The position numbers and the translations under genes are program-made. From an uncultured Chloroflexia bacterium (GTDB taxonomy: Bacteria; Chloroflexota; Limnocylindria; Limnocylindrales; CSP1-4), in the NCBI GenBank assembly GCA_963805585.1, contig CAWDUR010000033.1, positions 119 through 64,118 on the forward strand: a stretch of DNA of 64,000 nt, in the 5' to 3' direction. This document shows, in pieces, positions 49,768 to 52,467 of this stretch. The stretch's first letter is position 1; each line of letters begins with the position of its first letter. The notes beneath the pieces were generated by a model that searched no databases, had not been told where the DNA came from, and saw nothing but the letters and a program-made list of their open reading frames with translations.

Positions 49768-52467
49768 ATGCCCGACCCGCAGAAGCCCCCCAGGAACCAC
49801 GACGGCGGACTGCTGCTGCCTGCCCTCGAGCGGCTGGCACCGGCCCCGGCCATGGCCGCCGTCGCCTCACAGATCGCGAACCGGACGCGGGCCGGTGACG
49901 TGGTCCTGGAGCTGCATGGCCGGGGTGGCTGGGTCACGCGCGGCGCGATCGACCAGTTGCGCCGGGCCTTCACCATCGAGACCACGGCGCTGACGCGCCT
50001 CGTGGCCGAGATCGTCCTGCGGCCGCCGGACCTGCGTCACCTGGATGCGGCCGTGTCGGCCATCGCCGTCGACGCGCATGGCACGGCGGGCGGGCTGCGC
50101 CTGGCCATCGAGGGCAGCTATGCCTCGCGCTGCCCGACCTGTGGTGGGTCGGTGACCGTCGACGAGTTCATCTGGGACGCCGATGCCAGCGATCCGTCGC
50201 GCCGTTCGTTCCGCTGCCCGCGCTGTCGCGATGGCCGTTCTGAGGGCCGGCCCATCGCCGTGGACCCAGACGACCTCTATCGGATGCGAGCCGTGGATGC
50301 CTCCACGGCTCGGGCGTCCCTGCGCGACCGCTTCGCGACACCCACCATCGACCACACCCTGCCAGACGATCTCGTGGACCTCTACCCGCCGCGCGCGCAG
50401 GTCGCGCTGGCGGCACTCCTCGAGCGCATCGAAGGCGACCTGCGCGCACCCTCCGTGCAGGCGGCGCTGCGACTGGCCATCGTGCACATGGCGCTACAGG
50501 TCAGCCGGCTGAACGGCTACCCCGGACGCGTGGCGGGCCTGCGCATCAGCAGCGGCCAGGTACGCGGGTCCAGCTCACGCCAGTGGCGTGAGCGGAACGC
50601 CTGGGCAGTCTTCGAGGAGGGCACGCGCGCCGTGCGCGCCTTCGTCCAGTCGCTCGAGGCGGGCGGCTCGCGTACGCCGGCGCGGGTCGGTCCAGACCTG
50701 CGCTCGCTCATCGACGGTTCGGCCAACGTGGCACTGCGCTTCGGGATGCCACTGGGTCGCGAGACGTTCGGCCCGCCCCCGCGGCCGGGCGCGGCTCCCG
50801 GTCCCCGGCCACGCGTGGCTCCCGCCGTGAAGCTCGTCCTCAGCCAGCCGCCCATCCACTGGTCGGCGGACAATCTGGCCTTCGCCTACCTCGCGACATC
50901 CCTGGCGGTCGGGCCGGAGGGCGCGGCCACGCTGCCCTTGGCAGGCATCTTCGGGCCCGCCCCGCGCTCCGAGTGGGCGCGCGACGCAGCCACGCTGCAG
51001 CGCGCTCTCGCAGCCGTGCAGCCGGTCCTCCTGCCGGACGCGCAGGCCGTGATCCTCCTGGGAGGCGCCAGCCCCGAGGCCCTCGTGGCAGCCGTCATCG
51101 GCGGGGTCGGGGCCGGCATGCGTCTGGATGACGCCGCTCTCACCGAGACTGACCGCGGCCTGGATGGTTCGGTCGTCTTCGTCCTGCCACGCTCTCCAGC
51201 CACCGGCGCCCGCGAGGTGGCGCTTGTGCCGACCTCTGACCGGGCCACGCCGTTCCAACTCTCCGCGGTCGAGGCGGCCATCGCCGATGTCGCGGTCGCC
51301 GTCGTCCAGCTGCGCGGCGAACCGACGCGCTTCGACCGCATCCTTGCCGAGGTCCTCCTGGGCCTCGATCACCTCGGGCACTTGCGCCGCCTGGTGGGCA
51401 CGCCTCGGCCCGTGGAGGAGGCCGACGACGAGCCCGCGGCGCCGCGCCAGGCCAGCCTCTTCGGCGTCGTCAGCGACCTGCCGTCTGCCCCCGACTCGAC
51501 GGCCCATGCGACGAGCGCCGACGCCGCGTCTGCGCCGGCGAGTCCGGGTGGCGTTGCTCGCGAGGAAGGCATGCCGGCCTCCGACCCCGTGCGCCTGACG
51601 CTGGATATCGTGCGTCGCGAGTTGCGCCGACCGGAGCACCCCCGACTCGTGGAGGTCGAGGAGGACCTCTGGTGGCTGCGCGACCCGCGCGACCTGGCGG
51701 CTGTCAAGGCGCCCGTCTCGGAGCGGCTCGAGTGGGGCATCTTCAGCCTGCTCTCGACAAGCGGCGGTATCAGCCCGGCCTCCTTCGACGAGCGTGTCAG
51801 CCGCCTCTTCCGCGGTCCGGAGGCGGCCGACCCAGAGCTCGTGCAGGCCTGTCTGGCAAGCTACCGGACGGCCGAGCCGTCGCCCGACGGGCTCATCCGC
51901 ACCGCCGAGTCCCTGCCGCGTCGCTACACGGAGCACGGCGAGATGGTGGGACGGCTCACTGAGTTCGCGCACCGGCTGGGGATGCGCGCCTGGGTCACCA
52001 AGCGCGAGCAGCGGCGCAGCTATCAGGGCAAACCACTGGCAGACCTGCTGAGTGATCCGGAGCGGCGGGTCTACCTGCCCCTCGTGGCTCCGGGGCCACA
52101 GGAAGTGCTTGAGGAGATCGACTGCATCTGGTACGTGCGCGGTCGCGGCGCCTTCCTCTTCGACGTCGAATGGATGGCCGCCCTGGACGAGGCGGTCCTG
52201 CGGCGCGGGCCACGCATCGAAACGACGGATGCCCTGGTGCGCTTCCTGGTGGTGGCCGACGAACGCATCCCTCTCCTGCGCCTGCGCCTGGCTCGCTCGC
52301 CGATCCTGCGGGCGCGCCTCGAAGAGGACAACTGGCATATCCTCCGCTGGAGCAACGTGCGCCGTCTGCACGCCTCGAAGCGGGCGAGCCTGGCGGCACT
52401 CAGTCCACTCCTGGGACTCGATCCCGAGGTCGAGCGGGGCGATGACCAGATGGCCATGTTCAGGTAG
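49768..52467 (+). CDS. large protein with degenerate DNA methyltransferase fold, Zn ribbon and C-terminal restriction-endonuclease-like domain
   Basis: GDVVLELHGRGG (motif I-like), CPTC...CPRC, LVLSQPP (motif IV-like) and IDCIWY...FLFDVEW (PD-(D/E)xK-like). Confidence 0.65.
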   Translation: MPDPQKPPRNHDGGLLLPALERLAPAPAMAAVASQIANRTRAGDVVLELHGRGGWVTRGAIDQLRRAFTIETTALTRLVAEIVLRPPDLRHLDAAVSAIAVDAHGTAGGLRLAIEGSYASRCPTCGGSVTVDEFIWDADASDPSRRSFRCPRCRDGRSEGRPIAVDPDDLYRMRAVDASTARASLRDRFATPTIDHTLPDDLVDLYPPRAQVALAALLERIEGDLRAPSVQAALRLAIVHMALQVSRLNGYPGRVAGLRISSGQVRGSSSRQWRERNAWAVFEEGTRAVRAFVQSLEAGGSRTPARVGPDLRSLIDGSANVALRFGMPLGRETFGPPPRPGAAPGPRPRVAPAVKLVLSQPPIHWSADNLAFAYLATSLAVGPEGAATLPLAGIFGPAPRSEWARDAATLQRALAAVQPVLLPDAQAVILLGGASPEALVAAVIGGVGAGMRLDDAALTETDRGLDGSVVFVLPRSPATGAREVALVPTSDRATPFQLSAVEAAIADVAVAVVQLRGEPTRFDRILAEVLLGLDHLGHLRRLVGTPRPVEEADDEPAAPRQASLFGVVSDLPSAPDSTAHATSADAASAPASPGGVAREEGMPASDPVRLTLDIVRRELRRPEHPRLVEVEEDLWWLRDPRDLAAVKAPVSERLEWGIFSLLSTSGGISPASFDERVSRLFRGPEAADPELVQACLASYRTAEPSPDGLIRTAESLPRRYTEHGEMVGRLTEFAHRLGMRAWVTKREQRRSYQGKPLADLLSDPERRVYLPLVAPGPQEVLEEIDCIWYVRGRGAFLFDVEWMAALDEAVLRRGPRIETTDALVRFLVVADERIPLLRLRLARSPILRARLEEDNWHILRWSNVRRLHASKRASLAALSPLLGLDPEVERGDDQMAMFR

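Follow-up and report, generated by a model that had tools for sequence, protein, structure and literature searches.

The window analysed here is a 64,000-nucleotide stretch of contig CAWDUR010000033.1 from an uncultured Chloroflexota bacterium of the class Limnocylindria. At 49768-52467 on the forward strand it carries a gene for a protein of 899 amino acids (aa), called P0001 in the following, in which a methylase-like half with degenerate motifs is followed by a restriction-nuclease-like domain and by a C-terminal motif of the type that binds the replication clamp. Judged by its distribution and by the constraint on its sequence, the P0001 gene is a vertically inherited housekeeping gene under strong purifying selection and not a defence gene. 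We give about even chances to the reading that P0001 is a domesticated reader-nuclease, derived from restriction and modification (R-M) systems, which works in genome maintenance at the replication clamp. As far as the searched libraries and the literature show, the family is undescribed, and a literature search on Limnocylindria and methyltransferases found nothing relevant.

The gene was found in 147 of 151 Limnocylindria genomes, and in 109 of the 110 of high quality. It is present in a single copy and covers all 36 genera. In the phylum Chloroflexota as a whole 50 of 217 high-quality genomes gave a match; outside Limnocylindria the matching proteins are 730-860 aa long, distantly homologous and belong to a few other families. 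When 1.84 billion cluster representatives were searched with a profile, 1519 family members were returned, and a collection of 5.8 billion proteins holds more than 1100 homologs at E <= 0.001. Named homologs are annotated as 'hypothetical protein', and their organisms, where given, are metagenome-assembled genomes (MAGs) of Chloroflexota or Limnocylindrales. The ratio of nonsynonymous to synonymous substitution rates (dN/dS) was computed pairwise against the four relatives with usable dS (L021, L022, L023 and L071). The methylase-like core has values of 0.055-0.14 and the nuclease core of 0.06-0.08, as compared to 0.2-0.96 in the linker, the gene outside the linker lying at about 0.1. The housekeeping reading follows from the near-universal single copy in the class together with the low dN/dS. 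These two observations also bear out the proposal of the first-pass annotation, an earlier reading of the same DNA, that the protein is a retained pseudo-methyltransferase and not a working R-M enzyme.

The gene and its parts are as follows.

49768-52467 (+): whole gene, 899 codons and a stop, encoding P0001; open frame with a coding profile of G+C at third codon positions
49816-50118 (+): methyltransferase-like fold, part 1 (aa 17-117), beta1-alphaA-beta2-alphaB; predicted local distance difference test score (pLDDT) of AlphaFold about 90; contains the degenerate motif I E48-L-H-G-R-G-G54, with E71 at the end of beta2
50119-50247 (+): zinc (Zn) ribbon (aa 118-160) with C122, C125, C150 and C153; from Cys conservation and a modelled beta ribbon
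50260-50562 (+): helical insert (aa 165-265) between alphaB and beta3, from AlphaFold; R209 invariant
50563-51207 (+): methyltransferase-like fold, part 2 (aa 266-480), with beta3 (RERN), beta4 with the motif IV-like Q360-P-P-I-H-W365, and beta5-beta7
51259-51402 (+): helical segment (aa 498-545), from AlphaFold; G517-E518-P519 invariant family-wide
51403-51576 (+): disordered linker (aa 546-603), pLDDT below 35
51577-51897 (+): helical, winged-helix-like region (aa 604-710), domain model pLDDT 88.7, weak partial Foldseek matches
51898-52377 (+): PD-(D/E)xK restriction-nuclease-like domain of the NmeDI_C / PADLOC REase_II type (aa 711-870), from profile, hhalign and alignment
52447-52461 (+): beta-clamp-binding-type pentapeptide Q894-M-A-M-F898 in the disordered tail, from conservation; pLDDT below 50
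49752-49757 (+): -10-like hexamer TAGACT, 10 nucleotides 5' of the ATG, read from the sequence; no obvious Shine-Dalgarno

The window has a G+C content of 71%, at which long spurious open reading frames (ORFs) are common. The P0001 frame has no internal stop in its translation, and its G+C by codon position (0.77/0.54/0.86) is that of the genuine genes of the window. An 832-aa ORF on the opposite strand was rejected as a shadow frame, its codon-position G+C profile not being gene-like. The start Met is the same in the aligned orthologs. The gene is single copy in its MAG (2.18 Mb, 60% complete), in which the window lies on a 159-kb contig. The hexamer TAGACT may be the gene's own promoter, which would give a near-leaderless mRNA. 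The long uninterrupted ORF of the first-pass annotation is thus upheld, and all the motifs quoted in it are present, namely GDVVLELHGRGG at aa 43-54, IETTALTRLVA at 70-80, CPTC at 122-125, CPRC at 150-153, VKLVLSQPPI at 354-363 and IDCIWY...FLFDVEW at 784-802. These strings are not due to chance, because in an alignment of 30 orthologs, with identity down to 50%, their key residues show no variation or a conservation of at least 90%. The positions conserved at this level include L49, H50, R52, G53, the four Cys, P362, W365, D785, W788, Y789, E801 and W802.

The first line of evidence concerns the origin and the state of the N-terminal half. The full-length AlphaFold2 model, built on a 30-sequence alignment (pLDDT 81, predicted template-modelling score (pTM) 0.75), has the canonical strand order of a class-I methyltransferase: beta1 (45-51), alphaA, beta2 (66-71), alphaB, an insert, beta3 (272-276), alphaC, beta4 (354-359) and beta5-beta7. 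The insert between alphaB and beta3 is formed by the Zn ribbon (118-160) and by helices (165-265). When the full-length model was searched against PDB with Foldseek, the top 50 matches were almost all S-adenosylmethionine (SAM) methyltransferases, none of them significant (best E 0.034, low template-modelling scores). P0001 itself gave nothing significant in sequence searches of Pfam, NCBIfam, PADLOC and PDB, PF01555 being unmatched, and a profile made from Limnocylindria only had no methylase match in PDB. Methylase homology emerged only once distant homologs were added. In three homologs that belong to other Chloroflexota families, aa 20-81 match the motif I end of PF01555 (N6_N4_Mtase); the best match among distant homologs reaches 26.6 bits (E 7e-6), just under the gathering cut-off of 26.7. 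A profile of 15 diverse family members matches M.RsrI (PDB 1EG2) with E 4.5e-4 over M.RsrI residues 226-275, and also a Thermus modification methylase (2ZIE, E 3.4e-3). Both matches cover the QKP...VLDxFxGSG...D region. On these profile matches the N-terminal module is descended from an N6/N4 DNA methylase, the similarity having decayed in the clade of the window.

Motif I reads VLELHGRGG in the window protein, with an invariant Arg52. Elsewhere in the family it reads DPFCQAD, DPFGFSP or DPFAHSD, and the canonical form DPWAGTG occurs in 3 sequences only, all of a sister Limnocylindria family. Motif IV is SQPPIH in the window protein, and SPPR, RPPY, SPPG, SPPP, CQAPVE or LPRPNQ elsewhere. The canonical motif IV, (D/N/S)PP(Y/F/W), was found in 0 of 241 family sequences. 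The residues which are invariant across the family are the four Cys, R22, R209, E275, W279 and G517-E518-P519, not the classical methylase residues. E275 and W279 belong to the RERN region of beta3, and of the Zn-ribbon residues C122, C150 and C153 never vary, while C125 reaches at least 90% conservation, distant classes included. Conserved SAM-dependent catalysis appears unlikely in this family, because the fold is under strong constraint whereas the motif I and motif IV loops change freely from clade to clade. The methyltransferase fold proposed earlier finds support in the strand order of the model, in the weak Foldseek matches and in the homology of the distant members. The loss of FxGxG and DPPY holds as well, in the window protein and across the family, whose orthologs are without a canonical motif IV. 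The helical repeats of that annotation are seen in part: the model has the helical insert (165-265) and the helical segment (498-545), with no sign of repeats.

The second line of evidence is the C-terminal nuclease domain. When aa 604-899 were modelled alone from 42 orthologs (pLDDT 88.7, pTM 0.84), a winged-helix-like helical part was followed by an alpha-beta-beta-beta-alpha-beta core. The best Foldseek match of this model in PDB is FokI (E 4e-3, probability 0.75), followed by other PD-(D/E)xK proteins, EcoO109I, Can2, Bax1 and FAAP24, all weak. In the viral library many named matches (Mrr, T7 endonuclease I, MmcB, VRR-NUC, ERCC4 and 'restriction endonuclease') were obtained, individually weak. 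In both libraries together, the matches that bear a name are for the most part PD-(D/E)xK proteins. The weak partial matches of the winged-helix-like region are to cullin WHB, to LOTUS domains and to recognition domains of FokI. Many homologs carry a precomputed Pfam label for PF27126 (NmeDI_C), marked 'faint'. Of 42 family members, 33 are matched by the PADLOC model REase_II (PDLC03534), with a best E of 1.4e-6 and E 0.0028 for the window copy. The model also picks up stand-alone proteins, about 375 aa long, in 25 of the 401 Chloroflexota genomes sampled. Its 351 positions equal the length of R.NmeDI (PMC2095814). A hidden Markov model of the C-terminal family matches 12 of 12 fetched stand-alone relatives, and the hhalign comparison of the family with these 12 gives a probability of 94.7% (E 6e-8, 144 columns). 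The following blocks of the alignment correspond between the P0001 family and the stand-alone relatives.

GHRLG in the P0001 family, G..MG in the stand-alone relatives
W-V-x-R-E-Q-R in the P0001 family, W-V-x-R-N-D-R in the stand-alone relatives
I-D785-C-I-W in the P0001 family, I-D-V-L-W in the stand-alone relatives
F-(D/E)799-V-E801-W in the P0001 family, F-E-(I/V)-E in the stand-alone relatives
VAP-ER in the P0001 family, VAP-(E/D)(R/K)R in the stand-alone relatives

The key residues of the domain are E722-H723, R746-E747, D785, D799, E801, R825 and E832-R833. Among them D785, D799 and E801 correspond in the alignment to D262, E276 and E278, which are invariant in the stand-alone relatives. 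This D...ExE variant of the triad is known from BamHI. In 201 family sequences the acidic triad D785, (D/E)799 and E801 is kept in 96%, 88% and 90%, respectively, and because of this conservation the nuclease residues are judged not to be eroded in Limnocylindria. The C-terminal PD-(D/E)xK nuclease domain which had been read from the letters alone is supported by PDLC03534, the family model, the alignment and hhalign. The catalytic erosion that the first-pass annotation ascribed to the whole protein applies to the methylase motifs; it does not extend to the nuclease, in which the acidic triad is intact.

Three of four scanned stand-alone relatives have an N-terminal EVE domain, a PUA-like modified-base reader. 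Such proteins with an EVE domain and an NmeDI_C-type nuclease (L122-L133, from other Chloroflexota) resemble type IV-like restriction enzymes. In P0001 and its orthologs the linker before the winged-helix-like region varies in length from about 50 to more than 250 aa. The long-linker orthologs share a sequence SWRDPxRx(V/I)R in it (alignment columns 700-760), which is absent from the window protein and may be a second short linear interaction motif.

The third line of evidence is the extreme C-terminus. The tail Q-M-A-M-F-R is disordered in both models and comes after a conserved LLGLDPE segment. Q894 and F898 are invariant in the 30 orthologs. Among 185 complete C-termini the loose motif Q-[LMIV]-x-[LMIVF]-[FLMI] is found within the last 25 residues in 167 (90%), usually 0-2 residues from the end, as compared to 0.7% in shuffled 25-mers. 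Of the 185, 136 have the strict variant Q[LM]x[LM]F, commonly as QLALF, QMAMF, QLPLF or QMPMF. The clamp motif of E. coli DnaE is QADMF. The bacterial clamp-binding consensus is QL[S/D]LF, more generally QxxLF, and DnaE of B. subtilis has QMGLF (PMC12309361). In the genome of the window only 2 of 1505 coding-like ORFs have Q[LM]x[LM]F in the last 12 residues, namely P0001 and one uracil-DNA glycosylase. A C-terminal motif of the QxxLF type is retained even in the distant branch which is without the nuclease residues. By this pattern of conservation P0001 is inferred to be a client of the DnaN sliding clamp.

The other ORF with this ending codes for a uracil-DNA glycosylase of the UDG superfamily (contig C9:62632-64572), with a low-complexity tail of about 75 aa that ends in DDQLGLF. 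It runs in one frame with an upstream aspartate-semialdehyde-dehydrogenase-like gene that leaves the frame in this assembly, and an indel is probable here.

The fourth line of evidence comes from the mismatch-repair gene content of the class. It was found that MutS_I (PF01624) and MutL_C (PF08676) are each absent from all of 60 high-quality Limnocylindria genomes (0/60), and each was detected in 11 of 14 named control genomes. In a sample of the phylum Chloroflexota 213 of 251 genomes have MutS_I, and all Limnocylindria of this sample are without it. For NucS_C (PF01939) only short partial matches were obtained in Limnocylindria and nothing convincing. These cover mostly model positions 12-56 in ORFs of about 120-150 aa, one being better at 38 bits, and there is essentially nothing in the window's own family. 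Judged by these profile searches, Limnocylindria are without the known post-replicative mismatch repair systems. Neither this class-wide absence of MutS and MutL nor the clamp-binding-type tail is mentioned in the first-pass annotation.

The gene order in Limnocylindria is GGDEF protein, PolX, TPR protein, P0001 gene and DUF885. A co-oriented TPR gene lies directly 5' of the P0001 gene in nearly all Limnocylindria loci with sufficient flank, and 50 of the 57 loci whose flank reaches 4.5 kb or more have PolX upstream, its distance in the class being 1-5 kb. In the window these two neighbours are the following.

48737-49666 (+): TPR partner gene; Pfam finds TPR only; TPR repeats, a beta-rich domain (PGDFVELAPEG...) and a polyacidic tail of about 60 residues
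46738-48586 (+): PolX gene (polymerase beta-like and PHP), in the window split over two frames near 48096

A HIRAN domain in the TPR partner was considered and rejected, since Pfam matched it in 1 of 9 orthologs only, with E 0.16. The split of PolX lies at 48090-48105, where the window has one extra base relative to five relatives (GAGATCGACC vs GAGATC-ACC). In these five relatives PolX is a single ORF of about 600-720 aa. The frame split is either an assembly indel or a genuine pseudogene. The DUF885 gene 3' of the P0001 gene is also split, into 52507-53049 and about 53050-54268, by one extra base at 53045-53055 (CTCCCTGAGC vs CTCCC-GAGC in relatives). Single-base frame breaks were also observed in close relatives among the 'MFD' MAGs, in the P0001 ortholog of L050 (6001-8701) and in the PolX of L120 (5057-6895), which appears as three gene calls; indel errors thus seem to be common in this assembly set. 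Outside Limnocylindria no class-independent operon was found, and the neighbours differ (a CAP/Ig secreted protein, a glycosyltransferase, an HD protein). In one distant or intermediate lineage (L114:4472-6736, -) the homolog is directly followed by a DEAD-box helicase of the MrfA/Hrq1-like kind, which has an MZB zinc domain and is of a DNA-repair type.

The reading of P0001 as a domesticated reader-nuclease would work as follows. The dead methylase, the Zn ribbon and the winged-helix region would together form a DNA-binding sensor, which probably flips bases. Through its C-terminal tail the protein would be anchored to the DnaN clamp, at the replication fork or in its wake. The nuclease would then nick or cut the DNA at the feature recognised by the sensor, and the resulting gap could possibly be filled by the neighbouring PolX. 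Candidate substrates are a mismatch, a base that is damaged or misincorporated, and a methylation state. In the EVE-nuclease fusions the EVE domain is thought to be a reader of modified bases. That the same nuclease module sits elsewhere behind such a reader supports the dead methylase as the recognition module of P0001. A mismatch-repair-like role is speculative and would rest on analogy. A more far-reaching form of this proposal, which we hold to be quite unlikely, is that P0001 is the key enzyme of a third replication-coupled correction of errors and lesions, independent of MutS-MutL and of NucS, in which a clamp-tethered nuclease would cut where the dead methylase flips out and recognises mismatched or aberrant bases and PolX would resynthesise the DNA.

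Several observations weigh against the proposal of a clamp-tethered reader-nuclease. For the clade of the window the methylase link consists of a predicted fold and of transitive homology only, and every Foldseek match, in the PDB and viral libraries, has an E value above 0.001. The clamp evidence is a pattern of five residues only. The genomes outside Limnocylindria which have distant homologs all have MutS, and a strict phyletic complementarity of the P0001 family with MutS was rejected for this reason. The acidic triad is lost in the most distant branch, the Chloroflexota families f11 and f35. Because the distant homologs coexist with MutS and those of f11 and f35 are without the triad, the ancestral role of the family need be neither nucleolytic nor related to mismatches. 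The synteny with PolX and TPR is confined to Limnocylindria and could be due to common descent instead of function, and PolX is frame-shifted in the window's assembly. The conservation of G51, G53, G54, E71 and E275 and the strong constraint on the methylase-like core are compatible with SAM binding.

Among the alternatives, it could be possible that P0001 is a catalytically silent, clamp-associated protein, inactive in both the methylase and the nuclease half, which binds DNA or serves as a scaffold and only recruits or organises partners (TPR protein, PolX) there. We consider this unlikely. In its favour, the homologs of f11 and f35 have neither methylase motifs nor the triad but still possess the Zn ribbon, RE..W, GEP and the QxxLF-type motif, and conservation across the family falls on residues other than the classical catalytic ones. 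However, D785, D/E799 and E801 are kept at 88-96% in Limnocylindria and the intermediate clades, the triad aligns with the invariant D...ExE of stand-alone restriction-type nucleases, and the dN/dS of the nuclease domain (0.06-0.08) is low.

It is decidedly unlikely that P0001 is an active, unorthodox methyltransferase of DNA, RNA or protein joined to a nuclease, with ELHGRGG and QPPIHW as functional motifs. The loop after beta1 is still rich in Gly (G51, G53, G54) but has the invariant R52 in place of a loop Gly; Q360-P-P is similar to N/D-P-P, but there is no aromatic residue at position 4 of motif IV. E71 at the end of beta2 and E275 at the end of beta3 stand at the SAM-ligand positions of class-I methylases, and the dN/dS of the methylase-like core is the lowest in the gene (0.055-0.155). 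Against this, both loops differ freely between clades, which is unexpected for a conserved active site, and the window protein is unmatched by any methylase profile. It is very improbable that P0001 is a type IV-like or type IIG-like defence enzyme whose methylase-like module senses foreign or modified DNA, the defence component suggested by the first-pass annotation: both domains come from R-M lineages and the nearest stand-alone nuclease relatives are EVE-nuclease fusions and the type II enzyme NmeDI (PMC2095814), but 109 of 110 high-quality genomes carry the gene, always in single copy and at a fixed syntenic position between housekeeping genes, with no adjacent cognate methylase, a clamp-binding-type tail, a domain order reverse to that of type IIG and, in PADLOC, no system-level match beyond the weak nuclease one.

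The question of replication fidelity without MutS-MutL was solved for Actinobacteria only in 2017-2018, with NucS, and other lineages without MutS and MutL are unexplained. Limnocylindria is such a class, of abundant soil and freshwater bacteria, without MutS, MutL or a convincing NucS. P0001 is a class-wide core protein which appears to follow a NucS-like logic (sensor, PD-(D/E)xK nuclease, clamp motif) and to be built from R-M parts. Even if the repair role is wrong, the gene would be a clean case of an R-M fusion domesticated into a housekeeping gene, in which the methylase fold is held by strong selection after loss of the canonical motifs.

P0001 can be compared with several known systems. 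ATL proteins and dead methylases of the METTL14 type are precedents for a dead modifying fold that is kept as a sensor or scaffold for nucleic acids. Their folds and families are unrelated to P0001, and none of them carries a fused nuclease or clamp motif. With the beta-class N6/N4 DNA methyltransferases (PF01555; M.RsrI, 1EG2) the class-I fold is probably common and the motif X/I/II region is homologous. However, in P0001 motif I precedes motif IV instead of following it, a 150-aa insert of Zn ribbon and helices comes after alphaB, and FxGxG and DPPY are degenerate. Type IIG enzymes such as MmeI and BpuSI also have a methylase fold and a PD-(D/E)xK nuclease in a single polypeptide. They have an N-terminal nuclease, an active gamma-class NPPY methylase and a C-terminal target recognition domain, and they are mobile defence genes. 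In P0001, in contrast, the methylase-like part (aa 17-480) precedes the nuclease (711-870) and no target recognition domain comes after it. Since, in addition, the motifs are degenerate, the methylase lineage is a different one and the distribution is not patchy, the type IIG-like label of the first-pass annotation was dropped.

The nuclease core is homologous to that of R.NmeDI, REase_II and the stand-alone EVE-nucleases, with W-V-x-R-[NE]-[DE], I-D-[VC]-[LI]-W and F-E-[VI]-E in common. The R.NmeDI-type relatives are restriction-type proteins of 350-400 aa with an N-terminal recognition domain of their own and a patchy distribution, whereas P0001 is a pseudo-methylase fusion with a clamp motif and a core gene. 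With NucS/EndoMS there is no relation in sequence or Pfam, P0001 being without NucS_N and NucS_C matches and four times larger. The sensor of P0001 would be a dead DNA-methylase fold with a Zn ribbon, and its nuclease is of the NmeDI_C type with D...ExE, as compared to the RecB type with D-E-K in NucS. Distant homologs of P0001 coexist with MutS. In NucS/EndoMS the C-terminal clamp motif is required for low mutation rates (PMC6159521). Both proteins occur in lineages without MutS and MutL (PMC6159521, PMC6159515), and by analogy only, though a striking one, both would combine a sensor with a PD-(D/E)xK nuclease and with a clamp motif at the C-terminus.

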